The notes: generated by a model not told the origin, from the sequence alone. A DNA stretch of 64,000 bases from an uncultured Candidatus Saccharibacteria bacterium (GCA_964362545.1 CAYIEM010000001.1:17424-81423); one strand, 5' to 3'. Shown: positions 3,525 through 64,000, counted from the stretch's first letter. Translations and numbers: made by a program.

Positions 3525-3596
3525 TTTTTTACTTGCCCGTCCGAAGCTTAAGCGAAGGCGGGTGGTCGTAATTTTTCATAAATTAACCTCTTGTTT

Positions 3597-4646: not shown

Positions 4647-4683
4647 ATTTTATAGTATATCATATCTCCGTAATATAATTAAT

Positions 4684-5034: not shown

Positions 5035-5944
5035 CAGTGCTCGCTAGCGATATAAAACGATCTTTCGATTTTTCTTTCAGACAAAGTTCTCCTTGTTTTG
5101 TTTCTCCCCCAAAGTCTTTCATCGTCTCCTCTAACGCATATCCTAGGGAGAGTGGAGAAAAATCTACAGCATAAGAAGTCAAAATAACAAAAAGGGGCTT
5201 ATCGCTTAAAACCCTTCGCATACTCGCGAGAAGTTTCGATAAATCTTTTTCTATTTCCCAAGTTTCCCCTTTTGGTCCGCGACCGAATTTAGGCGGATCC
5301 ATGATAACAGCGTCGTATCTGTTTCCCCTTTTCACCTCCCTCTCTAAAAATTTCACAGTGTCATCTAAAATAATCCGAAGTGGCATTTTATCTAATCCAG
5401 TATCTGTATTGAGTTTCTGATTTTGTTTTACCCATTCGAGTGTTTGTTTTGATGCATCCACGTGCGTTACTTCGGCGCCTGCTTTAAGCGCAAACAAACT
5501 AGCCACACCAGTATATCCGAATAAATTTAAAAACTTAATTTTTCTTTTTTGCGGAAGTCCGACTTCCACAAATTTTAACTTCTCTTCAATAAAATCCCAA
5601 TGGCTGGCCTGTTCCGGAAAGAAGCCCAAATGACGAAAAGGTGTGGGAGAAGCTAAAAATTTGATACCCTTATATGACATTCCCCATTTTGAACCAATGT
5701 CAAAGGCTACCTTTGACATTTTCCAACCGGACTTAGCGCCTTCTTTTGAGCTCCAAAATTTGCCATTAGCTTTAGCCCAAGTTTTTTGCACTTCCGGCGT
5801 CAGTGCCTTCGGCCAAACAGCATCTTCGTAAGGCCGCACGAAAATAAAAGGACCGAACCTCTCCAGCTTCTCTCCATCGCCCGTATCTAAAAGTTCATAA
5901 TCTTTCCAATCTTCCGAACAAAAAATTTCTATTTTATTTTTCAT
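5015..5944 (-). CDS. Class I SAM-dependent (rRNA) methyltransferase, RlmI-like (PF10672-type)
   Basis: 309 aa. Rossmann motif FLNLFGYTGVASLFALKAGAEVTHVDAS. N-terminal YELLDTGDGEKLERFG resembles the RlmI-family core. Confidence 0.6.
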   Translation of the reverse strand: MKNKIEIFCSEDWKDYELLDTGDGEKLERFGPFIFVRPYEDAVWPKALTPEVQKTWAKANGKFWSSKEGAKSGWKMSKVAFDIGSKWGMSYKGIKFLASPTPFRHLGFFPEQASHWDFIEEKLKFVEVGLPQKRKIKFLNLFGYTGVASLFALKAGAEVTHVDASKQTLEWVKQNQKLNTDTGLDKMPLRIILDDTVKFLEREVKRGNRYDAVIMDPPKFGRGPKGETWEIEKDLSKLLASMRRVLSDKPLFVILTSYAVDFSPLSLGYALEETMKDFGGETKQGELCLKEKSKDRFISLASTAIWHPL

Positions 5945-47906: not shown

Positions 47907-48269
47907 CTAATTTTTATTTCTGTAAAAATAATAAAGCGCGAGTGGCGCTGCCCAGTTGGCGAAACGTTCTATGAAATCCCATACCGGCAAACCTACCAGC
48001 GGGCGAACGAGAGCAGTCCAAAAGCCCCAAAATGCCATCCATAATAAGAGAGGACGAATCGGTTTCCAAAGCACAAGAATCGCCAATAATATATCGACTG
48101 CTCCCACCACCGTCATGAATATCGTGGCCGTCCCAGTATCTAGTCCGGTCAATTGCTCAGTCCATTTTATCCAATCTGGCTTGCCTAATAAAGCAAAGAC
48201 ACCATGGCCCAAAAACTCACCCGCTACGCCTATCCTCAAAACCCACTCCAACTTTTTTTCATTTGTCAT
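47907..48269 (-). CDS. DoxX-family small membrane protein
   Basis: 120 aa, 3-4 TM helices, DoxX-like N-terminus (LRIGVAGEFLGHGVFALLGKP). Confidence 0.45.
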   Translation of the reverse strand: MTNEKKLEWVLRIGVAGEFLGHGVFALLGKPDWIKWTEQLTGLDTGTATIFMTVVGAVDILLAILVLWKPIRPLLLWMAFWGFWTALVRPLVGLPVWDFIERFANWAAPLALYYFYRNKN

Positions 48270-48329
48270 AAATAAAATTATAAAAATAATTATGCTTTTA
48301 ATAGTTACATAACTATTGTAGCATGGAAA

Positions 48330-49014
48330 TTAAATTAATTCTTTTGCATAACGACAATCAAACACCCCTCCGCGCTGGACTACCAGACTCCTTAACTTAT
48401 CTTTCTGCCTATAGGTCACACCTCCTGCTAGAAAGAAATTTTTAATGTTGAACATTTCAGATAATTTAACTACATTTTGCTCAAAATTATTAGATACCTC
48501 TCTCTCTCCACTCATCATCGTTTAATTCTGAAATCTGCCTGTTTAGTCTTTTTCTAATATTATTTCCTCCACATTCTTGCTCAAACCTTCCTAAGTGTTC
48601 AGAATGGTTGAGTTTCTCTATAACAAAACTGTCTTTCTTTTTTTGAAATTTTGTTCCTCCTATGCCCGTGCCCTAAGCCAAATAAATATATTTTCCATCT
48701 TGCAAATCGTTATATAGTTCACTAAAAGACGCCAGAACAACGTCATTGTCCAAAAAAACAGGGCAGCCATGTCTTTCCATGAGTATTTTGGTAAATTCAA
48801 TATTTATCCACTCTGGCAAATGATTTGAACTAATAAGCACACTTTTATTATCACTTACTGTTCCAGCAATCCCAACAGCAATTGCCTTAAAGACTTTTTC
48901 TTTGCAGTTTTTGTCAAAAATTTCAAAAATCTTTTTTAAATCATCATCCAAATGATGAGATAATGGAAATTTTTCAACAGCAAAAAAATTAGAAACATCG
49001 TTTCTATCTGAATT
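48330..49014 (-). pseudogene. ROK-family sugar kinase (glucokinase-like), interrupted by in-frame TAG and lacking N-terminal ATP-binding segment
   Basis: Fragments KAIAVGIAGTVSDNKSVLISSNHLPEW...GCPVFLDNDVVLASFSE...YIYLA-TAG(48673-48675)-GTGIGG...FFLAGGV are colinear with ROK glucokinase motifs in one frame. Upstream extension hits a stop at 49015-49017 before any DxGGT motif. Confidence 0.5.
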
Positions 49015-49156
49015 TTATCTTACATTAGATACGATTATATTTAAGTTCGAACTTACTATAAGGTAGGAAAAATAATCTTTATAAAAAAAGCTTCAAATTT
49101 TGCTTCACTGGCTAGAGAATGTTAGGACCTGTTTTATAAAAAGACATTAGGATTAC

Positions 49157-49897
49157 CTATTTAATGAAACACTTTTCTTTGCGCTCTTCAGGTGTAAGCC
49201 CTTCATAATATTTCCAAATTGTAGGAGCAAATTCTTGCAGAGCTTTCTTGCATTCTTCTAACATACTATAAGCATGTTGCTCATCCACCCACCCTTGGCC
49301 AAGCATGTGTCTAGTTATTTCACTAACCTCTTTTCCTCCTTTGACAAATCCTTCTGCAGCTCTGGCCATCAATTCAGCTGAGGTCTTCGATTCTTTTATT
49401 GCATCCTCAAGAATTTGGAGTCCTTTAATTAGTTGTTGTTGGTTGGTCTTTGTATCTTTTTCAAAATCAAGCTCAAGATATGCAATTAGCATTCTTGGAA
49501 GAGAAAATCCTGGGAGTTTATTTAATGGTGCTAACCTTTCTTTATAGTTCTTTGGTACTGATTGTTCTTCATATTTAACAGGAGATTCGCCTTCCTTCCT
49601 TTCAACAGTTTCAGAAAATTCTTTAAACATTGCGTCGTTTTTGGAAGCTTCAATCGCGCGACTGATAAAGCCGAACCAAAAATTTACTTCGGCATATCGT
49701 GGCGTCATTTTTTCTGCTCCACCACGTTTACTTGATGGACTAGTTAGCTCGTCGACTACTGGACAACCATTATACCAACCTAAACGTCTCGCTTGCTCTT
49801 GTATGGGCAGTTTGAAAAATTCTTTATAATGCTTATTTATGTGGCCTATAAACGAACCTGTTCCAAATTTTAATTCTTCTAGGATTGGTTCTTTCAT
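49157..49897 (-). CDS. Hypothetical 246-aa soluble protein
   Basis: Intact ORF, no recognised family. Confidence 0.35.
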   Translation of the reverse strand: MKEPILEELKFGTGSFIGHINKHYKEFFKLPIQEQARRLGWYNGCPVVDELTSPSSKRGGAEKMTPRYAEVNFWFGFISRAIEASKNDAMFKEFSETVERKEGESPVKYEEQSVPKNYKERLAPLNKLPGFSLPRMLIAYLELDFEKDTKTNQQQLIKGLQILEDAIKESKTSAELMARAAEGFVKGGKEVSEITRHMLGQGWVDEQHAYSMLEECKKALQEFAPTIWKYYEGLTPEERKEKCFIK

Positions 49898-50112
49898 ATT
49901 TTTATTCTAACACAAGTTCGAACCCGACGAGGGGTATTAAAAATAACTATTATAAAATATGGCTAAAAAATTTGGCTCCATATAATAAACAAATTCAGAA
50001 CCTTAAATTGGGCCAAGATTAAAAGCGAGCTTGATTTTAGCGGGATTTTTAATCTGTTTCCGCAATTATCTTAAATCATGAATTATCCTATTTTGCGTCT
50101 TTTATATTTAAA

Positions 50113-50646
50113 TCATTTCTCTAGCTCCGTATACATCTTTATCCCCTCCAAGATACCAGAAGTGAAATATTTGGTCAGATCTATTCCTTCCAAATCCAAC
50201 CATTGGTAATCGGTGTGCTCGTGGTTTATTTTCACATCGCCTGTCAAATACTCGGCTTCAAAAAATAAATACAGCACATGAATATCTTTTCCTGTACGAG
50301 TCAAAGACGATGGTATAAGATGTCTGCCTGTTGCCACTGGCGATTTTGATTGTATGCGAAACTCGATATCGCCTATCTCTTCAGATATTTCTCTGGAAAT
50401 AATTTCAGAAAAATCTGTTTCGAATTCATCTATGTCGATTCTTCCACCTGGCACATCATAGTAGCCAGCATAGCTTCCATTGTCAACGGCTTTTAACGCG
50501 AGGATGTCTCCTTTGTTATTCTTAAGTAATAATTTAAGCGATATTTGATAAAAATCTCTTTCTTTTTTCATGGATTCAGCGAACCATGGCAGACCCATTA
50601 GGATTAAGTACTTATAATCTAAATCATTATAGGTATATCCTATCAC
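50113..50646 (-). CDS. Divergent Nudix-like hydrolase
   Basis: PGGRIDIDEFETDFSEIISREISEEIG resembles a Nudix box with a 3-residue longer loop. Confidence 0.45.
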   Translation of the reverse strand: MIGYTYNDLDYKYLILMGLPWFAESMKKERDFYQISLKLLLKNNKGDILALKAVDNGSYAGYYDVPGGRIDIDEFETDFSEIISREISEEIGDIEFRIQSKSPVATGRHLIPSSLTRTGKDIHVLYLFFEAEYLTGDVKINHEHTDYQWLDLEGIDLTKYFTSGILEGIKMYTELEK

Positions 50647-51239
50647 TTTTCTCTAGATTTTGTTGAGGCGTGTGAGTTGCGGGCTATAAGTTTTAATATA
50701 AGCCATAATACGGCAGTAATAACACTTGGAATTATTAGCACTCGGTAAACAAAATCCCATATATTATTACAATCGTAGACCGTAACATTCTTATATCGTA
50801 CATCGTCCAGCAATTTTTGGTTCTTCCACTCGTTGAACATCGCTATTTGCTCTTCTTCGTTCAGCATATCTTTTTTTATTCTTAGTTCACCAACAGTAAT
50901 GTTATTGGAATAGCGATCGATAAATTCGGAAAGTTTCATAAGTCTCTTGCAATCATCTCCTGATATGTATTTATTGCCCTCATCCGATCGTCTAGTTTGC
51001 CATTCAAAAGTATCCAAGAAGACTGAACCGCATTTAGTTTCTGGAAATCTGCCTTTGAAAATTCCATGCAAGGAATCGTAACCTGGTTCCCAGCTGTATG
51101 CGCGACCGTAATGATATGCATAATCAACTGGACCGCCACCAATCCATCCGCCTCCTCGATCAAGAGAGTGTTTTACCAAACCCCAGAGCGCAACCATCAA
51201 AAAGACAATTATTAAAATAATTACCTTAGCCTTGTTCAT
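50643..51239 (-). CDS. Hypothetical bitopic membrane protein (N- and C-terminal TM)
   Basis: 198 aa. Overlaps the downstream gene by 4 nt (operon). Confidence 0.35.
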   Translation of the reverse strand: MNKAKVIILIIVFLMVALWGLVKHSLDRGGGWIGGGPVDYAYHYGRAYSWEPGYDSLHGIFKGRFPETKCGSVFLDTFEWQTRRSDEGNKYISGDDCKRLMKLSEFIDRYSNNITVGELRIKKDMLNEEEQIAMFNEWKNQKLLDDVRYKNVTVYDCNNIWDFVYRVLIIPSVITAVLWLILKLIARNSHASTKSREK

Positions 51240-51251
51240 AGTGATATTATA

Positions 51252-52085
51252 CTACGGTTTTAATGCTTTACATTCATTGTTATCTGTTGTCCAAGACTTA
51301 TACACTGGATGAAAAGAACTACACTCAACTTGCGACGCACAATAACTTGAAATTTCTGTCGTTGAAATTTCACTACAAAGAGACTCATCGTGACGTTTTA
51401 TTGCTTGATTTAAAAAACAGATGTCTTCTGTTGTAGAGTATATTCCTCTCTTACACCACTCAGTAGAGGCTTGTTTACTACCCAATCTCTCATAGCTTGA
51501 AATTTCTCTTTCATGATCTTGAAGTTTTTCACTAGCATACCAAACCCCAATGTATGAAATAAAAACAAAAAGAATGGCCATACATAGCGACCAACGTATT
51601 TTAACTCGTTTAAATCCATCTTTAATGAGTACTGGCCAACTCATGGCAAATATAAATACAGGAAGGCTGAAGATAGCAACAAGTACTCCCTGCTCTCCAA
51701 AATCCGAGCAACTCATCATTAAACAAAATTTTGTATTATATCCAATAATAATAATCACCCCCAATATTGGAATCAAAAAAAAGAACACCTTCCAAAAAAT
51801 ACGTCTGCGATCTTTATCATTATAAAAAGACAGAACCGATGCGAGTAAACTTGCTGTAAATGTAATAATGGATGCGTTTTCTAACCAATGTGCGTAAACA
51901 GAATAATCTTGATACGAGATACCTCCGCTAGGAGTAATATATAATTCTTGAAAGAATCCTTTGCCTTCCGTATACATAAAAACGCATATCATGGAAATAC
52001 AAAAAAAGAATATAGAAATTAAAAACCATTGTCTAGGAGATAAAAGGTTACACCAAGCTGATATTTTTGTTTTCCACGATTTCAT
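51252..52085 (-). CDS. Hypothetical polytopic membrane protein with Cys-rich C-terminal tail
   Basis: 277 aa, about 6 TM helices. C-terminal about 90 aa has 10 Cys. Confidence 0.35.
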   Translation of the reverse strand: MKSWKTKISAWCNLLSPRQWFLISIFFFCISMICVFMYTEGKGFFQELYITPSGGISYQDYSVYAHWLENASIITFTASLLASVLSFYNDKDRRRIFWKVFFFLIPILGVIIIIGYNTKFCLMMSCSDFGEQGVLVAIFSLPVFIFAMSWPVLIKDGFKRVKIRWSLCMAILFVFISYIGVWYASEKLQDHEREISSYERLGSKQASTEWCKRGIYSTTEDICFLNQAIKRHDESLCSEISTTEISSYCASQVECSSFHPVYKSWTTDNNECKALKP

Positions 52086-52088
52086 AAA

Positions 52089-53123
52089 TTAGTCGCTCCA
52101 ATCTATACCACCTTCTCTCATTTTTTGCTTAATAAACTTATCGTGCTTTTCTGACTTTTCATCGTCGTTTTTACCTTGAAAGTTAGTGGTTTCCGCTTCT
52201 AGAAATATAGGATAGCGTTTAATGTACTCACTAGGATTATTAAAGTAATCAAGGGCTGTTTTAATCCAATCTGATGGTGTTAAAAAAACTGTGATTAAGT
52301 AATCTACGGCACCGAGTTGTATTCCCTTAGTAATGTTCTCCCTTAGACTCATATTGCTTACAAAAATGACTGGTATGTCTTTAGTTCTCTCATCTGCCTT
52401 TAACAATTCAATAGCTTCATATCCGAATCTGCCTGGCATGACAATATCTAGGAAAATTAGATCTGGCTTGATATTAAAAACTTTCTCCACAAAATCACCA
52501 TTGGCATTTTCTAGCGCATCAACCAAAAAACCAACCTGCCCAAATTTGGTTTTATACATATCTCGTAAAACCTCATCGTCGTCAACAAGAAGAATCTTAC
52601 CTTTTGTTTTCATGTTGTTTTTAGTTTTTAGTTTTTCTCTTAATTCATCTATTTTTTCTGGTCTAATAAAATTAAGACTATTATTACCCTGAGCGATCAT
52701 TAACATATCGGGTTCAAGGTATGTTTTATGAATTTCTCCTTTCTTAAATTTTTTATATAAAGCAATCTGTTCAAGAATATTTTGAAAATTTTCAGGGTAA
52801 ATCACGCTTTCCTCAGGGTTATAATCATCAGAATAAATCGAGTTGGGGTCCTCGACTAGTTCAAGGTCACTAACTCCTAAATTTTCTTTAAAAGCATCTA
52901 TCTTTTTGAATTCCTCATTTTTTATAAGTTCTTCTTGATTTTCTTTTATTAACTTAAATGGGTAACTTATAATCTTGAAAGGCAGTAAAAATAACTTCCG
53001 AATCAGCTCTAAAAAACCAGAAAGAAGTTCTCTGCCTTTTTCTGTAGAGTAAAGTATAGCTAGTAGTATTAAGAAAAGTAGGAGTGTCATTTTTTTATAT
53101 CCCGTGCACCAATACCTCCACAT
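52089..53123 (-). CDS. Membrane-anchored protein with C-terminal CheY-like receiver (REC) domain
   Basis: N-terminal TM. ILLVDDDEVLRD...DLIFLDIVMPGRFGYEAIELLK...IPVIFVSN REC motifs. No output domain. Confidence 0.6.
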   Translation of the reverse strand: MWRYWCTGYKKMTLLLFLILLAILYSTEKGRELLSGFLELIRKLFLLPFKIISYPFKLIKENQEELIKNEEFKKIDAFKENLGVSDLELVEDPNSIYSDDYNPEESVIYPENFQNILEQIALYKKFKKGEIHKTYLEPDMLMIAQGNNSLNFIRPEKIDELREKLKTKNNMKTKGKILLVDDDEVLRDMYKTKFGQVGFLVDALENANGDFVEKVFNIKPDLIFLDIVMPGRFGYEAIELLKADERTKDIPVIFVSNMSLRENITKGIQLGAVDYLITVFLTPSDWIKTALDYFNNPSEYIKRYPIFLEAETTNFQGKNDDEKSEKHDKFIKQKMREGGIDWSD

Positions 53124-53389
53124 ATACCACCGACTAAACCAAGAATAGACATAAGCAAACCTGTTGCAAAAGGATTACCGAATAATTTCGTCAGACCTTC
53201 TGGAACAGTATGAAAAAGTTTAGCAATCAGTTGGAAAGAAGTTAAAATGGCTAGTCCCCAAAAAGCGCTCCAACCCAAATATTCAAAATCACTAATTTTT
53301 GATTGAGATTTGCTGGAGTGTCTATACATCCAAACCGCTACAAACCCAGATAAAATTATTGCGAAATAAGAATATGCTTCAAAATTCAT
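53087..53389 (-). CDS. Hypothetical 100-aa 3-TM membrane protein
   Basis: ORF overlapping the start of the REC gene by 37 nt. Hydrophobic. Confidence 0.3.
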   Translation of the reverse strand: MNFEAYSYFAIILSGFVAVWMYRHSSKSQSKISDFEYLGWSAFWGLAILTSFQLIAKLFHTVPEGLTKLFGNPFATGLLMSILGLVGGICGGIGARDIKK

Positions 53390-53609
53390 ATCTTGATGAT
53401 ACTACTTAAATGCAATTTATTCAATTAAAAAAAATATAGAAAAATAAAACATATATCAAACAAACTATTTTAGATAACAATCACGCTCACGCTCATAGTA
53501 ATGAGTTTGCGCGTAACATATAAACATATTAAGCTAACACGTAATTTATTTTTATTTCAAAAAACGAGTTAGATATTTTATTTAAAAATTTCTTGTATTT
53601 TTGTAAGAC

Positions 53610-53643
53610 AAATGAAGGACCCGAGCTCGGACCCTTCATTTGA
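53610..53643. other. Strong GC-rich hairpin in ORF-free AT-rich region (AAATGAAGG-ac-CCGAG/CTCGG-ac-CCTTCATTT)
   Basis: 9-bp + 5-bp stems with a symmetric 2x2 internal loop. Possible terminator or 3' end of an unannotated RNA. Confidence 0.4.
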
Positions 53644-54525
53644 CATCTATTTTCCTTTCTTATTTTCAGCTTCAGCTTAATGCTCAAGCTATAAATAATT
53701 ATAAGACCCCTAGATTTATAACCAAAGCTATAAATAATAGTAGGCGTTTTAAATAAATTCAAACGAAAAATCTCTGCGTCTGGTTAGCGGATAAGCGTTA
53801 CTGGTTTTCTTTTTCTAGCAGGTAGTTCTACAATCTAGAGATTACTCATCTGTGATTATTCTTTGCAATCACGATGATTTTAGTGCAGTCTAGAAAGGCA
53901 GAAATGAAACTCAGCAAAAACAATAAGATACTCAAATGGTTACCGCTGGAATGGTTACATAATTATGCGTTCCGAGCGTACGGGCAGGTTTTTAGGCCTA
54001 GATTTGGTGGACTGGACAATAGATATTATTCTAAAGCCATTTGTCGAAGTGTGTATTTTTGCAAGCAACCTTTGTAACGGAAATCCCTATTCATTACAAG
54101 ACACCTCCAACTCTTTATATTTTAGACCATGCTCCTTCACTAAATCGTCCAACATGGTCCCTCAACTTGCTTATTCGAACTCCTCTATGTAGCCATTATT
54201 TGCTGTTGAGAGCAGTGATACTGGCATTGTATGAGCCTTCGTATTTCGGCATCAATGGATTCATTACAGATAATCTTCCCAATAGGTGAAGATGGTCGAT
54301 CCATGATATAGCTTAACGAGCGGTTCATTTATAAAACAAAAAATCTCTTCAGGGCGTATCTAGGATAATAGATACATCGTGAAAAGATTCTTTTACAATA
54401 TATCTTTATTCTATAAGCCCTGGTTAGCCGTAACTATTGACTAACAGATACATTATAGCATAATTTCAAGCAGAAAACAAGGAGTTTTACTACACTTTTA
54501 TTACTTAGTTTGTACAACTTTTTGC

Positions 54526-55029
54526 CTATTTAATATAGCCAATTTGGTAGAGAAAATCGGAGGTCTCATCAATTATATCCCTTACGAGAGAAGAGCAGTA
54601 GAAGGTCTTTTTGTAAACGGGTTTTATTTTATTGTAAGCTTTTTTATCAAAAGTTAAGATAAGTGCGTCAAGATCTATCCCAATACAGATAATTAAAAAA
54701 TCAGCTGTGCGTAAGCTCGTGGCAGAACTTCCAGGTTTTAGAATTTTCTTGGCGTGTTTAAAAGCTGATGTTTCTGCAATAGAAAGTATGACAATCTTCT
54801 CTTTGTGTAGAAGTCTCATAATAGCTCCTTCAACTTTTTTATAACTAATACCTTTTCGAATAAGAGTCGCTATTACTTCATATATTGCTATTGGTGGAAT
54901 AATAATTCTTACGTCAATAGATTTTTTTAAAAGTATTCCAAATATATTAACCGCATCCCGATGAAATGCATCGGATGAATCTATAGTGGCAATAATGAAA
55001 CAACTATCTATGACGACGTTTTGTTTCAT
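54526..55029 (-). CDS. PIN-domain (VapC-like) toxin
   Basis: Conserved acidic positions VIDSCF (D), YEV (E), RTADFLI (D), LTFDKK (D) in PIN spacing. 167 aa. Confidence 0.6.
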   Translation of the reverse strand: MKQNVVIDSCFIIATIDSSDAFHRDAVNIFGILLKKSIDVRIIIPPIAIYEVIATLIRKGISYKKVEGAIMRLLHKEKIVILSIAETSAFKHAKKILKPGSSATSLRTADFLIICIGIDLDALILTFDKKAYNKIKPVYKKTFYCSSLVRDIIDETSDFLYQIGYIK

Positions 55030-55207
55030 TTTTATGAGAAGATTTAATTATTATACCTTTTAGTTCTTTTGAAGCATCTCCATATCCCGCCTTAGGTATT
55101 CTTTCTATGGTAACCGTACTGGGTCGTCTGCGAGCTTCTCGAATTGGAATAAATTCTCCTGTCCTAGAGTCTCTTCCAAGTGGAAATGTTTTACTACTCT
55201 TACTCAT
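55004..55207 (-). CDS. Putative antitoxin-like small basic protein upstream of and overlapping the PIN gene
   Basis: 67 aa MSKSSKTFPLGRDSRTGEFIPIREARRRPSTVTIERIPKAGYGD.... Overlaps the PIN start by 26 nt (TA-operon arrangement). Confidence 0.4.
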   Translation of the reverse strand: MSKSSKTFPLGRDSRTGEFIPIREARRRPSTVTIERIPKAGYGDASKELKGIIIKSSHKNETKRRHR

Positions 55208-55291
55208 AAATTTATGATAACATTATTTCTTACAAATAAAAAAGCTCTCCCCAAAAAGAGCCATTTTATCTCGTTCTAGTTTTACTTAGAA

Positions 55292-55438
55292 CTACTTACG
55301 CTTAGTGTCTCCATGTCCTGATTTTGGAACCCTCTCTACCGTTGTAGAGTTGGGGCGCTGTCTAGCTTCTCGGACAGGTATGAACTCACCTGTCCTAGAG
55401 TCTCTTCCAAGTGGAAATGTTTTTGAGTTTTTACTCAT
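55292..55438 (-). CDS. Paralogous copy of the small PIN-associated gene (48 aa)
   Basis: Hand-translated: MSKNSKTFPLGRDSRTGEFIPVREARQRPNSTTVERVPKSGHGDTKRK*. About 70% identical to the first 45 aa of 55004-55207. Not in track (under 60 aa). Confidence 0.35.
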   Translation of the reverse strand: MSKNSKTFPLGRDSRTGEFIPVREARQRPNSTTVERVPKSGHGDTKRK

Positions 55439-55774
55439 AAATATTTAGTTGCTTGAGTTTAAAGTTGATAAGCAGGTGTCAGCTATGGTATACTAAAAGT
55501 CTATTAGGTTCTTAGCATATTGATAATTAGCTTCTCGAATTGACCGACACAGAGTAAATAATTTTGATTTTATATAAGGGGGAATCTCCTAATCCGATTT
55601 AAACACCTGAATACTGTTTTTTGTCTTCCTGATAGGTCTGTATTTCTTTACCAAACAAACAGATATTTTTATAATATCACAAACTTACCACCATGTCCCT
55701 GTGAATAACTTTTTTATTCTTTAATCTGAAAAATCAGACACGACCTCGACTTTTCCTACAGTTAATCTTTATAT

Positions 55775-58700
55775 CTAAACCGTTGGCTTTATCATCTTTT
55801 CAATAAATTTAATTTCATCTTTCGTTAATTTATACTTTTTATATAATTGCTTATCAATTTCTCCTATTGATTGTTTCCAGTCTATATCTGATTTTGAAGT
55901 AAAATCTTGAAGCGGAACAAATTGGTATACATTTTGAAGAACATTCTGAGAAGTTTTTAAAATGCCCACCATGTATCTAAAAAATTTTGTTTTTATGTAA
56001 GATGCAAGAGCGAGGGCTTCAAGTTGTGTATTAAACTGACCAATTGGAATCAATGAATCTGTGCACACAGATTTTGGTCCAGCTAAATATGGTTTACCCA
56101 AGATTGAGACTTCTTTTTTGTCTGTTAATAACCCAGCACCTCCATTACCTTTAGAAATGAAAATTTTCCATTTATCAGCTAAATTAGTGTTTTTAGTAAT
56201 GTATTTTTTTTCGACGTATCTAATTTCTTCATACTTACATCTTAATTTATAGTATTTATCCTTCTTTTTGTTTGTCGATATTTTTTTTGTGTCTTTACCT
56301 AATATACCAAATGCATTTCTACCTTTTGTAATATTTGTTATAGACTTAAAATCATTACTTTTTACTTTGCTTATTATATTGTGACTAAAACTACTACTTA
56401 GAATTATATCAAGACCTTCTTCAAATAAAGGGCGTTTTTTAGTAATAAAATTTTGCTCATCATAAAACTCAGTGAATTCAACATCTCCTCGATATTCTGG
56501 ATTATACAAAAAGTAATTAACACCACCACTGATCTCTACATCTGGAAAAACTTTACTCGAGATTGGAATATTAACAATACTTTGTAAATGATTATTTTCT
56601 TTAAAAAACTCTCTCAGCCTTAAAAACGATTTGTCTTGCGCATCACCAGTAAACCATCGCGACGGAGTAACCAACGATAAATATCTTGGATTAAGGCCAA
56701 TTGACATTTTAATGAAATCTGGAAAAATCTGTCTACTTAAAGATTTATTCTTTGAATTATTACTAATTGTCTGCTGGTATGGTGGGTTTCCCACAATTAC
56801 ATCAAATTTCATATAGTTATTGTTTATTATAACACTTTCATTCTTGATTAGTTCATCTTCTTCAATCAACTCATAAGACGTAATATTTTTTTCGATGTGT
56901 TCGATATTTAATTCTAGCAGAGCATATACTTTTCTTGTAAATTCATAGGCTATCTTAGATGTGGGGATAGAATAAAAATTATTTGCTACATCTTTACCAA
57001 ATTTCTTATATACAGCGTAGATAAATTCACCTCGTTTTGAAGCGATATCAAGTAGTTTTGTAGATTTACTAATTGCTTTTTCTGGTAATGTGCTAATGAT
57101 TTTATCTGCCATAAATTCAGGAGTTACAATTTCAGAATCAGACAAACGACTAAATTTTTTCAGAGCATTACTTGCTCTTTCTACTGGTCTAATGGTTGAA
57201 TCGTTTGCTAATGAATTTATATTGTGAATTTTGTAATCCAACTCACTGAGCACAAATGGATTGATATGTTTTTGAAACAAAGTAAGTATATTTTTACTAA
57301 TTCCTATATTTGAAACAATACGCACATTCTTTTCATCACTTTCAATTGCATGGATTACATCTTGGAGTGATTTGATTCTTGAATCAGTAAGGAGCGCAAA
57401 AAATAATATTTTAGCGTAGTACATCGCAAACTTTTTCTTATAATCTTCTTCTAAACCGTTTTCATCTGCGTCAGATTTTTTATCCAGCTCATTTGTTTGC
57501 GTGTTTTCTTTTACAACTTCTCCGAGGTCAATATCATCGCCTTCACCTTCAGCAGATTTGACTTCTAATCCCTGCCTTGATCCTATCTCATTTTGTCTTT
57601 CAATTTCAGCTTTAATTTCATCTATATTTAATAGAGAAAGATCCACCCCAATTGAGGTTGCCTCATCAATCACACTTCTATTACTTGAGTACTGTCTTAC
57701 TGCATCAATAATATTTGCTGGTTGGATTTCTACGATTTTATTTTTGTTTAAAACAATAATCGGAGATATGGCGAGTTCTCTTCTGATTCTTTCTTCCAAC
57801 TTAGAATTGCCATTCGATTCTATGTTTACATTATAAATTTGAGACTTATGCTCCTGCATTTCAAACATTCTGTTTGGATTAAAATCCACAAGGAGCGTTT
57901 GAGGCTTCATATTATATTTCACCGTGTCACCACCTTGTTCTTTATAAACTCGTACATACTGATTCTGCAGACGGAATATTGCTTGATCATATTCCTGAGG
58001 TGATGATGTATCTTTGAAATACAACATTGTATCCCATTCTGGCACCGTGCTCCCTGTGAGCATTCTGTTCACCGTTAACGTGATTGTTTTTATATCTTTA
58101 TTTTCACACTCTTTAATCTTTAATTGTACCGATTTGATATCTTTATAATTCTTATCACCATTAACACCTGAAATATTTATAATTTTATATTTACCAAGAT
58201 TTTTGAATGTATTCTTTTTAATTAATTCTTCTAACGCGTCACACGATGCTCTGAAAGGCAATACGCAGATAATATGACGACACATGTTACCTTTTTTTAA
58301 TTTATCGTAGTCAAGAAAACTTAATATATTTTCATCTTCTTTTGATCCGTCTATTACCTTTAATAACTCAATTATTTCTTTTTCGTGTTCAAATTTTTTA
58401 TGTAAATTATTTTTTGTATCTTTAGTTATTGATATAGGTTTAAATAATACAGAAAATGTGTAGGTAATACCATTTCTTTTAAATTCCTCCATTTTTTTAC
58501 GTGAGGACTCATTTGGATTAAATGCGAATCGAACCATCTGCGGAAACCCATAATATGGATTATCCCATTCTTTTACTTCGTCTTTATGTAGATTGTCTCT
58601 ATCCCATCTCTCTTGATCTTCTGCAATATTCGAAAACTGATAGAAAGCAATAATGTCTTCATCTGTAAATTCACTATTCATCAAAATCCGATATGGTGTT

Positions 58701-59740
58701 CCAGAGAGATGAAGGCGAACCTTAGCATTAATTGTTTTTATTGTTTTATCTAAATCATCTAAAGTATTATCAGCTAACTTTAGTTCATTTTTCATCTCTT
58801 TTACTGAGAGTGGATATTTCAATACCTTTCCATACTGTTCTGCTCGTGCACCAAAATGAGTTTCATCAATAATCAATAGATCAATTTTATTATCGAATAT
58901 TTCTTTATGTTTTGACTTTATTCCATCACCTTGTAAATCTTGCAATGTTAGAAACAAAACAATTTTTTCTTTTGCTTTCTGCTTATCTTTTACTATTGTT
59001 TTACCTTGCAAAAGATCCTTGCTATCTAGAAAACTATAGCCAGTAAATTTTTTATGACTTTCTACTGTTCTTTTCCATTCTTCTTTCACATCTGCTTTTG
59101 CAGATACAACCAGTACTAGATTTGTTGACATTTCAACCGCACAACACATAGAGGTGAACGATTTACCAAATCGCATCACCGCATACATCAATAAGTTAGT
59201 TCGTCCCTTGGTCAAAGCCTCCTTAAATCTATTTATAGTTGCTTGCTGATTTGGTCTTGGGTCATAATCTTCATCTCTTGCGTATGTATGAAAAACAGGA
59301 ATACGGCTTGTATCAAATTTGTAGTATTGATATTTATTCTCTTTATTCTTATGATTTTTTTTAATGTCTTTAATTGCACCAATCAGATCATTTTTTGAGG
59401 TATTTTTAAAAAATTCCTTAGAATAATATGGAGCTTTCCTAAGACTATCTGGAAGAAGCCGTTCTTTTTGTAGTTCTTTTTCGAGGTAATAATGAACAGC
59501 ATGATCTCTAAAAAAAGTTTGATCATCAACTTTTGCAACCTCATCAAACTTTTTTTCTAAATTAGGAAAATACTTTCTCCACTCACCAAGTCGTGTCTCA
59601 AGTGGACGATAGGTATCACCAATTTTTATATAATTAGGAATTATCTCTGTAGTAAACGCGTAAATCCTTGGTTCAACTCTCCCAATAATAATATGATCGA
59701 GTACGCTTACATCAATTTTGTTTAATTTTTTCATATCCAT
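55775..59740 (-). CDS. Single-chain restriction-modification-like enzyme: T5orf172/GIY-YIG-like N-domain + SF2 helicase + N6-adenine DNA methyltransferase + C-terminal (TRD-like) region
   Basis: 1321 aa. N-terminal IYAFTTEIIPNYIKIGDTYRPLETRLGEW (T5orf172-like). Helicase motifs MRFGKSFT (I), LLIIDETHFGA (II, DExH), LHLSGTPY (III). MTase motif IV VIVGNPPYQQ at about aa 985 with about 330 aa following. Confidence 0.6.
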   Translation of the reverse strand: MDMKKLNKIDVSVLDHIIIGRVEPRIYAFTTEIIPNYIKIGDTYRPLETRLGEWRKYFPNLEKKFDEVAKVDDQTFFRDHAVHYYLEKELQKERLLPDSLRKAPYYSKEFFKNTSKNDLIGAIKDIKKNHKNKENKYQYYKFDTSRIPVFHTYARDEDYDPRPNQQATINRFKEALTKGRTNLLMYAVMRFGKSFTSMCCAVEMSTNLVLVVSAKADVKEEWKRTVESHKKFTGYSFLDSKDLLQGKTIVKDKQKAKEKIVLFLTLQDLQGDGIKSKHKEIFDNKIDLLIIDETHFGARAEQYGKVLKYPLSVKEMKNELKLADNTLDDLDKTIKTINAKVRLHLSGTPYRILMNSEFTDEDIIAFYQFSNIAEDQERWDRDNLHKDEVKEWDNPYYGFPQMVRFAFNPNESSRKKMEEFKRNGITYTFSVLFKPISITKDTKNNLHKKFEHEKEIIELLKVIDGSKEDENILSFLDYDKLKKGNMCRHIICVLPFRASCDALEELIKKNTFKNLGKYKIINISGVNGDKNYKDIKSVQLKIKECENKDIKTITLTVNRMLTGSTVPEWDTMLYFKDTSSPQEYDQAIFRLQNQYVRVYKEQGGDTVKYNMKPQTLLVDFNPNRMFEMQEHKSQIYNVNIESNGNSKLEERIRRELAISPIIVLNKNKIVEIQPANIIDAVRQYSSNRSVIDEATSIGVDLSLLNIDEIKAEIERQNEIGSRQGLEVKSAEGEGDDIDLGEVVKENTQTNELDKKSDADENGLEEDYKKKFAMYYAKILFFALLTDSRIKSLQDVIHAIESDEKNVRIVSNIGISKNILTLFQKHINPFVLSELDYKIHNINSLANDSTIRPVERASNALKKFSRLSDSEIVTPEFMADKIISTLPEKAISKSTKLLDIASKRGEFIYAVYKKFGKDVANNFYSIPTSKIAYEFTRKVYALLELNIEHIEKNITSYELIEEDELIKNESVIINNNYMKFDVIVGNPPYQQTISNNSKNKSLSRQIFPDFIKMSIGLNPRYLSLVTPSRWFTGDAQDKSFLRLREFFKENNHLQSIVNIPISSKVFPDVEISGGVNYFLYNPEYRGDVEFTEFYDEQNFITKKRPLFEEGLDIILSSSFSHNIISKVKSNDFKSITNITKGRNAFGILGKDTKKISTNKKKDKYYKLRCKYEEIRYVEKKYITKNTNLADKWKIFISKGNGGAGLLTDKKEVSILGKPYLAGPKSVCTDSLIPIGQFNTQLEALALASYIKTKFFRYMVGILKTSQNVLQNVYQFVPLQDFTSKSDIDWKQSIGEIDKQLYKKYKLTKDEIKFIEKMIKPTV

Positions 59741-59741
59741 T

Positions 59742-60740
59742 TTAACTCTTAAGAAGTTCTATGAATGTAATCTCTCGACCTTTTTTCCCATTAACTGACC
59801 AATCTTTTATTACACAATATATACCATTATGTTTTTTAATATCATTATTAGTACAACCTAAACATTTTGACTTACTAACAGTTTTTCCTCCAAAAGTGTC
59901 AATAGTTGTACTACTTTCTTCTTTACAAGAATTAGGAATTACACCCTTTAATCCGTCCATTTGCCATACATTCCAAGAGATAATATTTGCGATACTTTTT
60001 ATTGATTTAACTTCTGGATTTTTCCCAAACTTCAAAGCATAATTTTCAATGAAAGTATACAGCATCGCTTCTCGTGCTAGCAATAAACTGTCTCCCTGCC
60101 ATTCATATCCATAGATGCTTTGGTAAGCAATTTGAGCTGCACTAGCCCATTCTTTAAGAGAACTTACATTTTCATTAATAATTCTCAATTTTCGATCTAA
60201 TATTCCAACTCTTTCTTTCACAGGAATAAATTTTCCTGTGGTTGTATCGTATCTACTTGTAATATATGGAGCTTCGCCACAAGCTATTTCTAGACGCATG
60301 TCCTTTACGTAATCTCTCCACGTCTTATTTTTAGGAAAAATTATTTTTTTAAAATTTGTTTTCCATTTCAGACCACTGTCAGATAAATCAGTTTCTTTAT
60401 TAAAGAGATCTTTTCTTTGAAACCAAGCATTGTCAACTTGATTATTTTGAGCATTACATATCCAGGCTGGAGTATAGACCTCTGCCATATTTTTGATTCT
60501 AGTATTTTGAAGAGTTTTATTCTTCAAAACTCTAGGCATTATCACCTTATTATTTTTTCCCGTAATCAAGCCTATCTTAATAAGTGATAGAAATTTATAA
60601 TCATCACCAAGATACTGGTAATTATCAGTGGCCCAAAAAATATTCCTATTTGTTGTTTGGTCACACAACAGGATATTAAGTACTTCTGGATATTTTTTTA
60701 AGATGTCATTTTCGAGGATATCTGTTTCACCCTGTTTCAT
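59742..60740 (-). CDS. Hypothetical 332-aa protein in defence operon
   Basis: Co-directional. 1-nt spacer to the downstream RM gene and 4-nt spacer to the upstream GmrSD-like gene. No recognised motifs. Confidence 0.35.
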   Translation of the reverse strand: MKQGETDILENDILKKYPEVLNILLCDQTTNRNIFWATDNYQYLGDDYKFLSLIKIGLITGKNNKVIMPRVLKNKTLQNTRIKNMAEVYTPAWICNAQNNQVDNAWFQRKDLFNKETDLSDSGLKWKTNFKKIIFPKNKTWRDYVKDMRLEIACGEAPYITSRYDTTTGKFIPVKERVGILDRKLRIINENVSSLKEWASAAQIAYQSIYGYEWQGDSLLLAREAMLYTFIENYALKFGKNPEVKSIKSIANIISWNVWQMDGLKGVIPNSCKEESSTTIDTFGGKTVSKSKCLGCTNNDIKKHNGIYCVIKDWSVNGKKGREITFIELLKS

Positions 60741-60744
60741 ATAT

Positions 60745-63207
60745 TTATTTTAATATATTCTCTAACCATAATATTGCTGCTTCTCCATTGCGTTTATCTA
60801 CCTCATTTAAATCCCTATTGTGTTTGATAGAGTTACGATAATTTTTAAAAGCACGAAAGTGTTGTTCTACTTGACCCTTGCTACCAAAGTATCTACCAAA
60901 TAATTCCCAGTTTGTTAAAATAATTTTTTCGTAATCCATTAAATCAAGAAAAGTTATTCTAACCTCGTCACGCATGTACTCTTCAAGTTTATATGGATGG
61001 CGACGCAAATCATCTTGTATTTTTTTATCTACAACATTCTGAATGTCTGATGGAACATATTCCTCCCAATATGAACCTTCTGTATCTCCTTTAAGTTTTT
61101 CATGCACAAACGAACGAACACGACCCTCAATAATATCTATTGGTTTAGTTGGGTTATTGTCAAAGTGTGCTTCGGACGCAGAACCAATACCAGTCTTAAC
61201 ACGGAACGCTTGTACTATTTTTTCAGCACGATAATCTAGAAACTTTAAAAATTCATTTGAAAGAAGTCCTGACTCTTGCATATTTGGAATAAAGTGATGT
61301 GTAAGTATTTCTGGAAGTTCGGTGTTTGTTTTTTGAAAACCTACAAAATAATCACCTGGTGCTGTGTCTAAAATTCCCACATTTGTAATTGCAGGAATAA
61401 GCATAATATTTACGATACTATCAAATACCTCTTTGTTTGCTGGTTCACTTTGTCGTAAATATGCTTGAGGAAAAACATGATGAAGATTGTGCTTGTAATA
61501 CCCAGTAAAGGCTCCATCAAGAGATATTGATCTTCCATCTGTAAGATTTTTAGGTTCAGCATTAGCATAAAGAGAAAGGACTGTTTTCACGAAAGCATTA
61601 CGTAAATTATATCTCTGCGCTATTAGATTATTCTTTAATGAAGCCCAATCAATAAGGTATGCGAATTGCGGATTTTTGCCGTCTAAAAACTCATCAAAAG
61701 CAGAACAGTCCTCTTCTATTTTTGATTCTACTGTTGAGTCATATCTATTAGATAGTGATGCGCGCCAAAACCATTGTTCTAATGCTGTAATTTCCGAATG
61801 AGATAATTCTTTCTTTTTGTGAAATATGTACGCAAGTGGTACAAGTAATCCATCAAATGGTAAGTAACTAAAATTCTTGATATGAAGTTTAGATTGTATA
61901 AACTCAACAGCAAGCAGAAGAGACTGTATAAGTGTATCCCACTCAGATTCAAGTTTCCTAATACTTGTTCGTTCTAGAATATCACGAGAACGACACTTGC
62001 GGTAATTTAGTATTACAGAGAATGTTTGAAGGATTGTTTCTTCGCGAATAGGTTCAAGAGCAGGATGTTGTTTGTAAAAATCGTCTAGAGCTTCGCGAAG
62101 TTCAAATCCTTCTCCCCAGCAACGTGCAACCATTTTAGCTACAACTGTCAATTTTTTTCCTGTTTCATTTATGCGTGAAAACATTCTTACTACCTGCTTA
62201 ACTCCTTCACTTTGTTCTTCTTCAGAAGAAGTATTTTTATCTATGACATCAATAACGGAAAAACGATAACTGGATAATCTTTCATACAATATAACTAGCA
62301 CTGACCGATATTCTTCTGGATATTTTTGAGCAACTATGTTATATGAAGCGAGACCAAGAAATAATGCACTCAACGGAACAAGAAGATTCTCATGGTCATT
62401 GTCTTCGTTACCTTCTTCGTTATTATTTTTTCGAACAACAAATTTTTTACTACGGACATCAAACAAAAAACGATAATTTTCTCCATCTATGGTGGAACCT
62501 TTTATAGCAGCAAAAAGAGATGTAATACGCTGTTGTCCATCAAGTACATATGAAATCTCAGTTCCAGGGTTAATATCTCCATGGTCAAGTTCTAGACTAC
62601 CAATATTGCGTGTATGTGGAAGCTTACGAATTGTTTTCCAGAAAATAAAACTACCAATAGGGTATCCTCGATAAATACTATCTAATAGAAAACGTATATC
62701 ACTAGGACTCCAAACAAAGGAACGTTGAAATGGAGGTATTTGAATACGACAAGTACTAATACCAGATAATAAATTCTGAAAGGTAATATCGCCTGGTTTA
62801 ACTTCCATAAGAACTTCAGGCTCGTCCTCGATTTCTTCCGAATAATCAGTCTCGTAGTCTTCAGTTTTATTTTCTGAACTCCATTTATAGTATGCTTTTC
62901 CAGAAAGATCAAAAATTTCTTGTGGTGATAAGGTTATATGTTTTTTACCTTCATCTGTGAGAATCCATTTTCCACCTGTTTTTTTTATCCAATCTGCCTT
63001 AGTAAGATTTATTGAATAAAAACGAAAAGTCGTTATCCATCTAAATTGACCAGAATTGTTTAAGCTCTTTTCCCATTCTGTGAAAGTTAGTCTCTCTTCC
63101 ATATATTTAATGAGTTCTTTTGTTGGACACTCTCCTCCTTTTTCTGCAAGGATATTAAGTGCGGTTAAAAGGTATTCACCTATTCTTTTGCTGGTTATTT
63201 TTGCCAT
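60745..63207 (-). CDS. GmrSD-family type IV restriction endonuclease-like protein (Mrr_N wHTH + DUF262 + DUF1524) with HEPN-like C-terminal motif
   Basis: 820 aa. N-terminal Mrr_N-like wHTH (NSGQFRWITTFRFYSINLTKADWI). DUF262 motifs IPPFQRSFVWS and VLDGQQRITSL. DUF1524 His-Me finger LHHVFPQAYL. C-terminal RNSIKHN (Rx4H). Confidence 0.7.
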   Translation of the reverse strand: MAKITSKRIGEYLLTALNILAEKGGECPTKELIKYMEERLTFTEWEKSLNNSGQFRWITTFRFYSINLTKADWIKKTGGKWILTDEGKKHITLSPQEIFDLSGKAYYKWSSENKTEDYETDYSEEIEDEPEVLMEVKPGDITFQNLLSGISTCRIQIPPFQRSFVWSPSDIRFLLDSIYRGYPIGSFIFWKTIRKLPHTRNIGSLELDHGDINPGTEISYVLDGQQRITSLFAAIKGSTIDGENYRFLFDVRSKKFVVRKNNNEEGNEDNDHENLLVPLSALFLGLASYNIVAQKYPEEYRSVLVILYERLSSYRFSVIDVIDKNTSSEEEQSEGVKQVVRMFSRINETGKKLTVVAKMVARCWGEGFELREALDDFYKQHPALEPIREETILQTFSVILNYRKCRSRDILERTSIRKLESEWDTLIQSLLLAVEFIQSKLHIKNFSYLPFDGLLVPLAYIFHKKKELSHSEITALEQWFWRASLSNRYDSTVESKIEEDCSAFDEFLDGKNPQFAYLIDWASLKNNLIAQRYNLRNAFVKTVLSLYANAEPKNLTDGRSISLDGAFTGYYKHNLHHVFPQAYLRQSEPANKEVFDSIVNIMLIPAITNVGILDTAPGDYFVGFQKTNTELPEILTHHFIPNMQESGLLSNEFLKFLDYRAEKIVQAFRVKTGIGSASEAHFDNNPTKPIDIIEGRVRSFVHEKLKGDTEGSYWEEYVPSDIQNVVDKKIQDDLRRHPYKLEEYMRDEVRITFLDLMDYEKIILTNWELFGRYFGSKGQVEQHFRAFKNYRNSIKHNRDLNEVDKRNGEAAILWLENILK

Positions 63208-63272
63208 AATTTAATAAGTAAAAACTTTAAAAATCATAGCATTTTTAGCTTAAATTTTAAAGTGATTTGAGA

Positions 63273-63328
63273 TCAAACAAAAAAGGTGGCATCCTGCGCG
63301 GAATACCACCTTAATTGTTTTTTATTTC
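63273..63328 (-). terminator. Rho-independent terminator (AAGGTGG-N16-CCACCTT with U-tracts on both strands)
   Basis: 7-bp GC-rich stem. On the minus strand it is followed by TTTTTTGTTTG, immediately downstream of the 63327-63569 gene and upstream of the defence operon start. Confidence 0.5.
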
Positions 63329-63569
63329 ATTCCCACTTCCCACTAGAAAACTGATACAAGGAATAATCCGCATCCGCTTCCGTCATATCTTCGAGCTCCA
63401 TAAGTTTCAATTCTCTTTCATCCTCGTCAAGAATATTCTGGTAAATAAGAGCAGTGAGTCTTTCTTTTTGGCTCTTGCTTATCATCGGAGTTTCTTCCAG
63501 GTCATATTTTGGAGGCCAGTAAAATCTTCTTGGACCATCCATATTGGCTGTAATTGTGTTCGTGTTCAT
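63327..63569 (-). CDS. Hypothetical 80-aa acidic protein
   Basis: Intact ORF followed by intrinsic terminator. No homology. Confidence 0.3.
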   Translation of the reverse strand: MNTNTITANMDGPRRFYWPPKYDLEETPMISKSQKERLTALIYQNILDEDERELKLMELEDMTEADADYSLYQFSSGKWE

Positions 63570-63591
63570 ATTTGTTTGATTAAGCTGATAA

Positions 63592-63984
63592 TTATTTCAC
63601 TGGTAAAAGAGAATTGATAAGCTCCGAGCATTCGAATTTAGAAAGATAGGGAGACTTTAGATGGTTCAGATATTCTTCTTTGCTATCATTGTCGCATTGT
63701 TCGTCTATTAACTTGGTTAAGAAGTTGCGCTGTTTGTCCGTAGCTATTTGCGGTAAATCATTTTCTGAATAGAAAGCTTTTTTGTCTCGACCTTCCAAAT
63801 CTTCTTCTTTCTGATTATTCGGCATGATATATAGCGCATCGAGTATCTTTGTTGAACGGACCATTGCATCCACGAGACTGGCATTATAAGCAAAACGGAC
63901 CGTTCTTTCTACAAATTTGTTTAGTCTGTTAAGTACGAAATTGTATTCCATAAGGCGCAGATAAGTCGCATAATGACTGACCAC
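63592..63984 (-). CDS. Hypothetical 130-aa protein
   Basis: Intact ORF co-directional with downstream small gene. No homology. Confidence 0.3.
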   Translation of the reverse strand: MVSHYATYLRLMEYNFVLNRLNKFVERTVRFAYNASLVDAMVRSTKILDALYIMPNNQKEEDLEGRDKKAFYSENDLPQIATDKQRNFLTKLIDEQCDNDSKEEYLNHLKSPYLSKFECSELINSLLPVK

Positions 63985-64000
63985 GAAAAGTTGAAGTCCA

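Follow-up and report, generated by a model that had tools for sequence, protein, structure and literature searches.

Background

Type ISP restriction-modification (RM) enzymes are defined by a single polypeptide chain that carries an N-terminal nuclease, a translocase, a gamma-class methyltransferase (MTase) and a C-terminal target-recognition domain (TRD) (PMC3874165). Comparable parts are found as three separate genes in DnmA(YeeA)-YeeB-YeeC, which encode an MmeI-like methylase, a superfamily 2 (SF2) helicase and a T5orf172/GIY-YIG protein (PMC2731913, PMC9973331). Helicase-containing relatives with GIY-YIG nucleases were mentioned by Morgan in 2009 (PMC2731913) and by Sisakova in 2012 (PMC3553950), and T5orf172 was included among the RM nucleases by Iyer et al. 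(2016). The subject of this report is a gene pair in a 64,000 nt stretch of DNA from an uncultured Candidatus Saccharibacteria bacterium (GCA_964362545.1, CAYIEM010000001.1:17424-81423). The whole stretch is referred to as the window. The pair consists of a large gene, which encodes a 1321-aa protein with a T5orf172 domain at its N-terminus, and a gene directly upstream that encodes a 332-aa partner, p332. A first-pass annotation of the window described the large protein as a new, single-polypeptide variant of the Type ISP enzymes in which the nuclease domain has been swapped. The analysis presented here shows a conserved second gene, and the pair most likely represents a two-gene, ATP-dependent RM module.

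To our knowledge, the translocating RM enzymes characterized so far (Type I, ISP and III) all cut with a PD-(D/E)xK nuclease. A GIY-YIG/T5orf172 example, if shown to be active, would widen the nuclease repertoire of the translocating RM enzymes and would also tell whether a nicking-type nuclease can pair with a DNA motor.

Domain organization of the large protein

The large gene is one uninterrupted open reading frame (ORF) with an ATG start (Table 1). All of the strings quoted in the first-pass annotation are found in its translation. The domain order proposed there, an N-terminal module followed by an SF2 ATPase, a gamma-class MTase and a C-terminal region, is borne out by Pfam matches, motifs and conservation. 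Homologues number in the thousands and more than 100 full-length ones are 61–75% identical, so the ORF is far from a chance reading frame.

As had been proposed, the N-terminal domain is a T5orf172 domain of the GIY-YIG clan rather than an Mrr or PD-(D/E)xK nuclease domain. The whole protein matches the Pfam family T5orf172 (PF10544) at residues 26–125 with E = 5e-5 and 24.1 bits, above the cut-off of 20, and the isolated N-terminus scores 27.2 bits (E = 5.6e-6). No PD-(D/E)xK or Mrr family of Pfam matches the large protein at E <= 0.1. The N-terminal signature IIIGRVEPRIYAFTTEIIPNYIKIGDTYRPLETRLGEW is at residues 17–54. An N-terminal alignment comprises 37 homologues with identities of 39–67%, 20 of which match T5orf172 above the Pfam cut-off; the homologue search with the N-terminal 160 aa returned mostly contig-end fragments, which served for the alignment but are uninformative on other architectures. 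Residues that are invariant or nearly so in the 37 homologues are G20, R21, Y27, Y37, K39, G41, D42, T43, R45, R50, E53 and W54, and further downstream R78, D79, H83, R94, S107, E109 and F110. Y27 is in an IYAF strand, and Y37–T43 are in a YxKxGDT strand. Y27, K39, G41, R50, D79 and E109 are identical even in relatives of approximately 25% identity (Rhizobium, Lactiplantibacillus and Lactococcus plasmids). The conserved Tyr of the first strand (Y27), Arg of the first helix (R50) and Glu before the last core strand (E109) are, by analogy, candidate catalytic residues.

Structure prediction of the N-terminus is in agreement with the family assignment. The AlphaFold2 model, with a mean predicted local distance difference test (pLDDT) value of 85, opens with two strands and a helix in a GIY-YIG-like manner and displays a GIY-YIG-type alpha/beta fold. 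When the model is compared by Foldseek with predicted viral structures (BFVD), T5orf172 proteins are at the top of the list, with E values of 2.6e-4 and above and a probability of 1.0. A catalytic role for the domain is likely. The protein Odn of phage ICP1 shows that T5orf172 proteins can act as nucleases (PMC8263062).

The second domain has the motifs of an HsdR/Res-like SF2 ATPase. The Pfam family ResIII (PF04851) matches residues 159–309 (E = 1.4e-12). The motifs are RFGKSFT (positions 190–196, with the Walker A residues GKS at 192–194), IIDETH (290–295, DETH at 292–295) and LSGTPY (345–350, SGTP at 346–349), and motifs V/VI are represented by TGSTVPEWD...QAIFRLQN at residues 562–593. GKS, DETH, SGTP and TGSTVPEWD...QAIFR are all invariant in the 24 homologues compared. 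The linker that follows (residues ~651–860) has no Pfam family match and contains an acidic, poorly conserved stretch at approximately 725–770.

The NPPY methylase of the first-pass annotation is confirmed by a match to the Eco57I methylase family (PF07669), with 70.6 bits against a cut-off of 25.3 at residues 920–1065. The motif order is X (EIVTP, 870–874), I (LLDIASKRGEF, 896–906) and IV (NPPY, 985–988, as part of GNPPY at 984–988), all of them invariant, with the variable region downstream. A motif I is thus present upstream of NPPY, in the variant form (S/T)KxGx(F/Y) where Lys replaces the first Gly of GxG. The beta2 strand, FYSIPTS, is without the usual acidic residue. Both the variant motif I and the acid-less beta2 strand are family-wide and are also found in distant relatives.

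A TRD-like C-terminal region had also been proposed, and a conservation profile of 117 full-length homologues bears this out. The mean identity to the window protein is 65% for the nuclease, 77% for the ATPase (the highest value), 63% for the linker, 70% for the methylase core and 66% for the last 60 residues. Residues ~1001–1260 have a mean identity of 40–41% and are the sole strongly variable part. Proteins with a pairwise identity above 85% in the body can be as little as 26% identical in this region. A variable segment of this type within a conserved body is the signature of an exchanged target-recognition domain. The conserved tail downstream, PLQDFTSKSDIDW...YKKYKLT..EI.FIE, is also kept in stand-alone and fused C-terminal halves, i.e., in protein P0363 and in gp277 of phage PTm1, which are described below.

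The PADLOC model PDLC03626 (REase_MTase_IIG) covers residues 5–1318 of the large protein with 1261.8 bits. No NCBIfam model matches either the large protein or p332, and relatives of the large protein are already named "GIY-YIG nuclease family protein" by NCBI. Such relatives are present in at least 436 species genomes of several phyla and also on plasmids and in phages. The large gene is therefore an ordinary member of a widespread, already catalogued family. Its architecture is not new, contrary to the first-pass annotation; it is captured along its full length by a PADLOC model, and GIY-YIG relatives had been mentioned in 2009 and 2012.

The partner protein p332

The most interesting point lies outside the gene considered in the first-pass annotation. 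It is a putative S-adenosylmethionine (SAM)-binding half-methylase subunit, which would place two N-terminal halves beside one catalytic half. The gene for p332 is directly upstream of the large gene, and its stop codon is 1 nt from the large-gene ATG. From the scan of the genome collection that identified the relatives in at least 436 species genomes, 80 loci were retrieved for neighborhood counts. A p332 homologue (44–65% identity) is directly upstream of the large gene in 78 of these 80 loci, and the remaining two have no upstream flank. Of the 75 loci in which the distance between the two genes was measured, 74 have values of -20 to +21 nt. The stop codon is always present and the frames vary. 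No neighbor other than the partner is conserved in the 80 loci, and no BREX (bacteriophage exclusion) or other accessory genes are kept nearby. This linkage, together with the existence of fused relatives, is at odds with the earlier description of a single-polypeptide enzyme and suggests a functional need for the partner.

p332 has no Pfam match. PADLOC labels it MTase_II (PDLC03390, 384.4 bits, residues 7–319), and the NCBI name for its homologues is "restriction endonuclease subunit M". The AlphaFold2 model of p332, with a pLDDT of 80 and a predicted template modeling score of 0.81, shows a methylase-like fold. Its closest structural match is LlaBIII (9.5), followed by Type I HsdM subunits (7.4–7.9), PglX (7.0), DrdV (6.5) and MmeI (5.9). 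By sequence, there is no match between p332 and any PDB chain.

The motifs found in p332 are X (EVYTP), a near-canonical motif I (LEIACGEAPY) and II (YGYE), and a (D/N/S)PP(Y/F/W) motif is absent throughout the sequence. This combination of motifs indicates that p332 is a putative SAM-binding N-terminal half of a gamma-class methylase, i.e., an incomplete enzyme. A cluster of Cys and His residues (C272, C293, C296 and H304) is present at the C-terminus. p332 is conserved evenly along its length and has no variable region. In profile comparisons it aligns motif by motif with 215–236-aa proteins of the plasmid relatives that are annotated "N-6 DNA methylase" (E = 2.6e-5 and 8.4e-5) and carry GEVFTP, FLEPACGSGNF and YG(V/I)E. 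An hhalign comparison of p332 with the large protein gave nothing significant, so p332 did not arise by recent duplication of the internal N-half of the large protein.

Fused, split and phage-borne relatives

An exhaustive profile search with the p332 family yielded 2281 representative proteins, many of which are ~330 aa in length and others of which are fusions. In P0363 (669 aa) the partner domain runs straight into MKFD..GNPPY and is followed by a TRD and a C-terminal tail shared with the window protein. It aligns to residues 977–1318 of the large protein (E = 2e-39) and corresponds to the PADLOC models PDLC03390 and PDLC03375 together. The gene for P0363 (locus L088) is followed immediately by a gene for a 1120-aa T5orf172-helicase protein, which is a Mod/Res-like layout. 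P0414 has the partner domain in place of the N-terminal T5orf172 on a homologous helicase-linker-methylase body (E = 8e-34), and P0400 consists of the partner domain, the linker and a complete Eco57I-type methylase. Plasmids display further arrangements. The order in Rhizobium phaseoli pRphaN671a is half-methylase, methylase-TRD and T5orf172-helicase, the last annotated "GIY-YIG nuclease family protein". A fused large protein followed by a half-methylase is found on an L. plantarum plasmid, and a half-methylase followed by a fused large protein on a Lactococcus plasmid.

The Tenacibaculum jumbo phages PTm1 and PTm5 encode the methylase halves without nuclease or helicase. The product gp279 is a partner homologue with 62% identity. 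gp277 begins exactly at MKFDIIVGNPPY and is 41% identical to residues 929–1319 of the large protein. In PTm1 (L089, positions 3001–5791) a helix-turn-helix gene is present between the genes for gp277, the C-terminal half, and gp279, and gp279 and gp277 match PDLC03390 and PDLC03375, respectively. The internal N-half is readable upstream of PTm1 gp277 with 65% identity to the window protein. It is in another frame, with the shift near residue 929, which could be a sequencing error, decay or a programmed frameshift. The methylase halves of PTm1 and PTm5 would look like a protective methylase against a host system of this type. Taken together, the fused and phage forms suggest that the partner works with the methylase/TRD half, and that the whole set represents one modular family in several fusion states.

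Two further groups of relatives were observed. The phage records MK250019.1 and MK250029.1 (Prevotella Lak megaphages), PV036449.1 and MT835565.1 encode relatives of the large protein with 26–28% identity that span residues 22–1317 or 24–1041, so nuclease and helicase parts are phage-borne too. On Enterococcus faecium plasmids (L087, 36 records), a gene for a 282-aa "restriction endonuclease" is followed by genes for a 1412-aa helicase-Eco57I protein and a DUF262 protein. These plasmids may carry a branch of this superfamily whose nuclease is of another kind and encoded separately.

Comparison with other RM systems

The large protein has the same domain order as the Type ISP enzymes LlaGI and LlaBIII, and ATP use and asymmetric sites are expected for both. 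The differences are extensive. The Type ISP nuclease is an Mrr PD-(D/E)xK domain whereas that of the large protein is T5orf172/GIY-YIG, and a Type ISP enzyme is one polypeptide whereas the window system adds a 332-aa half-methylase partner. The methylase in the window is of an Eco57I/TaqI-like family with a Lys-containing motif I, and no sequence similarity of the large protein to LlaBIII was detected. All PDB chains, including 4XQK (LlaBIII), were searched by phmmer and profile hmmsearch with the entire protein, the profile of its family, and the helicase and methylase/TRD parts taken alone; no RM match was found at E <= 1 to 10. This means that there is no sequence-level link to Type ISP, MmeI, BREX PglX or HsdR. 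Judged by sequence, the large protein is a lineage separate from Type ISP, with a convergent domain order, and the proposed nuclease-domain swap within a Type ISP enzyme finds no support in a match to LlaBIII or to any other solved RM enzyme.

In common with the Type III enzymes (Mod and Res, e.g., EcoP15I), relatives at locus L088 show a Mod-like gene (p332 domain, NPPY and TRD) followed by a Res-like helicase-nuclease gene. ATP-dependent communication is expected for both Type III and the window system, and both have more than one methylase-type module per complex. However, the Type III nuclease is a C-terminal PD-(D/E)xK domain and that of the window system is N-terminal and GIY-YIG-type. 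The Type III methylase has the beta motif order, and in the window system the order is gamma, with the catalytic/TRD half fused to the motor.

The Type IIG and IIL enzymes (Eco57I, MmeI) are similar to the large protein in having nuclease and methylase/TRD in one chain, an Eco57I-type core and a specificity set by the TRD. They differ in that they have no ATPase and their nucleases are PD-(D/E)xK, while the large protein has an SF2 ATPase and T5orf172. The "Type IIG" label assigned by PADLOC reflects solely that R and M are fused into a single chain, and it hides the ATPase. The conserved, predicted SF2 ATPase argues against a functional Type IIG enzyme, i.e., one with ATP-independent cleavage at a fixed distance. 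In addition, the two different "MTase_II" models represent two halves of one methylase, and methylase counts are therefore inflated.

Naturally split DNA methyltransferases include M.AquI and M.EcoHK31I (alpha/beta), which are C5-cytosine enzymes with the SAM-binding and catalytic/recognition parts encoded by separate genes. This split resembles that of the window system (the PDLC03390 and PDLC03375 halves). The window system differs from these enzymes in that a gamma-class adenine methylase is split, and its catalytic half is part of a nuclease-helicase chain that also has an internal N-half.

DnmA-YeeB-YeeC (PMC2731913, PMC9973331) shares with the window system a T5orf172-type nuclease, a helicase, an adenine methylase/TRD and an association with defense islands. 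The three activities are fused in the window, and the window system has the half-methylase as an extra subunit. No MmeI_* family of Pfam matches the large protein at E <= 0.1. An effect of DnmA-YeeB-YeeC on phage sensitivity in Vibrio is cited in PMC9973331.

Proposed function

A two-gene, ATP-dependent RM module with two subunits is probably the correct description of the gene pair. A short and probably asymmetric site would be recognized by the TRD and methylase, and host DNA would be methylated. If the DNA is foreign and unmodified, the ATPase would translocate the enzyme along it and the T5orf172 nuclease would then nick or cut at a distance from the site, in broad analogy to the Type I, Type ISP and Type III enzymes. 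p332, the small subunit, would belong to modification; its most likely role is to bind SAM and to complete or gate the half with NPPY and the TRD.

Several points weigh against this proposal. The translocation and collision details of the mechanism are drawn by analogy only. Helicase motif VI (QAIFRLQN) is without the second Arg. The large subunit keeps its own non-canonical motifs X and I, which leaves the need for a partner unexplained. A T5orf172 protein that binds DNA and does not cut, the domesticated endonuclease of the PLE satellite, is described in PMC8096241, and no restriction or defense was seen for the dnmA-yeeB-yeeC cluster of B. subtilis (PMC9973331). A characterization of the fused T5orf172-helicase-methylase family or of the half-methylase partner was not found in the searchable literature, which contains general remarks only.

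A more elaborate form of the two-subunit model, which is considered doubtful, is a naturally split adenine methyltransferase that acts as a switch. Here p332 would be the real SAM-binding half, the internal N-half a degenerate copy (no GxG and no motif II acid), and the nuclease-motor would carry the tethered NPPY/TRD half. Exchange between the pseudo-half and the free half would decide between methylation and translocation with cutting, and phages such as PTm1 would defeat the system with the two methylase halves alone. The conserved half-methylase partner and the phage-borne copy point to a putative form of modification-restriction coupling and to a putative counter-defense.

Other explanations concern the role of the nuclease domain and the completeness of the large protein. 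It is unlikely that T5orf172 is a DNA-binding or regulatory module in a system that blocks phages without cutting (BREX-like) or acts only as a translocating or epigenetic methyltransferase. The domain was originally described as DNA-binding, and the non-cutting domesticated versions and the B. subtilis DnmA-YeeB-YeeC set without restriction are in line with this idea. However, the Tyr, Arg and Glu of the GIY-YIG type do not vary within the superfamily, relatives are called GIY-YIG nucleases by NCBI, and the copy in phage PTm1 drops precisely the nuclease and helicase parts; the lack of conserved BREX or other accessory genes nearby also argues against it. It is highly unlikely that the large protein is a Type ISP enzyme of LlaGI/LlaBIII descent that works as one self-sufficient polypeptide, with T5orf172 in the place of Mrr. 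The domain order is equal to the published definition (PMC3874165) and the model of the partner is structurally closest to LlaBIII, but neither the sequence, the profile nor the separate parts match LlaBIII/4XQK, there is no Mrr or PD-(D/E)xK match, a conserved partner gene is present, and relatives exist as separate Mod-like and Res-like genes.

A role of p332 as a conventional second methyltransferase that acts independently and, like M.Eco57I, guards the opposite strand, with the large protein as a stand-alone RM enzyme, is scarcely credible. The PADLOC label MTase_II, the NCBI name and the methylase-like fold would agree with such a role, yet the (D/N/S)PP(Y/F/W) motif is nowhere in p332, its uniform conservation offers no variable region to track a changing TRD, and among its homologues complete enzymes are formed only where an NPPY/TRD half is attached. 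Decay is also a most improbable explanation; the pair would then be an inactive relic, an RM cassette in decay that persists by chance or through the neighboring toxin-antitoxin genes. A relic was proposed for the B. subtilis dnmA-yeeB-yeeC cluster, and the cassette in the window sits in a low-GC island. Against this, both ORFs are intact and all the catalytic-type motifs are without variation in the 24 to 118 homologues compared, which come from several phyla; the gene pair is kept in 78 of 80 loci, and the TRD diversifies as in active systems.

Genomic context

The coordinates of the gene pair, its domains and the neighboring genes are listed in Table 1. The window is chromosomal, with genes for leucyl-tRNA synthetase, DnaE and GroEL, and its DNA stems from contigs of a groundwater metagenome. 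The GC content is 30–36% at positions 48000–64000 and 39–42% elsewhere, and the RM pair is inside the low-GC stretch, which is consistent with a horizontally acquired island.

Table 1. Features of the RM gene pair and of other genes in the window (positions counted from the first nt of the window)
Feature	Position	Strand	Evidence
Large subunit: T5orf172 nuclease, SF2 ATPase, linker, gamma-class N6A methyltransferase, variable TRD, conserved tail	55775..59740	-	ORF, Pfam, PADLOC
T5orf172 / GIY-YIG-type domain, residues ~18-135	59336..59689	-	
SF2 helicase-like ATPase, residues ~159-650	57791..59266	-	ResIII match, motifs, conservation
Linker/coupler, residues ~651-860	57161..57790	-	conservation profile, alignment with P0414
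Methyltransferase conserved part, residues 861-1000	56741..57160	-	Pfam Eco57I (match 920-1065), invariant columns
Variable region, residues 1001-1260: C-terminal methylase subdomain and target-recognition domain	55961..56740	-	identity drop
Conserved C-terminal tail, residues 1261-1321	55778..55960	-	family conservation
Small subunit p332, 332 aa, putative half-methyltransferase	59742..60740	-	motifs X, I, II, Cys/His cluster
GmrSD-type protein, 820 aa	60745..63207	-	Mrr_N, GmrSD_N (DUF262), PADLOC
PIN-domain toxin	54526..55029	-	
67-aa ORF	55004..55207		
Shorter second copy of 67-aa ORF	55292..55438		
Leucyl-tRNA synthetase, 997 aa	531..3524	-	

Further upstream of the RM pair is a gene for a GmrSD-type, Type IV-like enzyme, which ends 4 nt before the partner gene. 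The protein has Mrr_N and GmrSD_N (DUF262) domains and a C-terminal HEPN-like region and is matched by PADLOC PDC-M55C and PDC-M34B. On the other side, a gene for a PIN-domain toxin overlaps the 67-aa ORF. The position of the RM pair between the GmrSD-type Type IV enzyme and the PIN toxin-antitoxin pair, at low GC, indicates a defense island, and these neighbors are separate tenants of the same island. The GmrSD-type gene was considered as a third component of the system and rejected; a homologue is present in just 2 of the 80 loci, where it is downstream.

The 67-aa ORF and its shorter second copy, both on the minus strand, have the sequence MSKxSKTFPLGRDSRTGEFIPxREARxRP in common. The two look like a duplicated antitoxin-like gene, with one copy without a toxin.

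In 15 of the 80 loci (e.g., L050) the large gene is followed directly by a same-strand ORF of 91–116 aa, which the window lacks. At the other end of the window, the leucyl-tRNA synthetase has a NUDIX match at residues 404–500 (E = 4e-14), which represents an unusual internal insertion.

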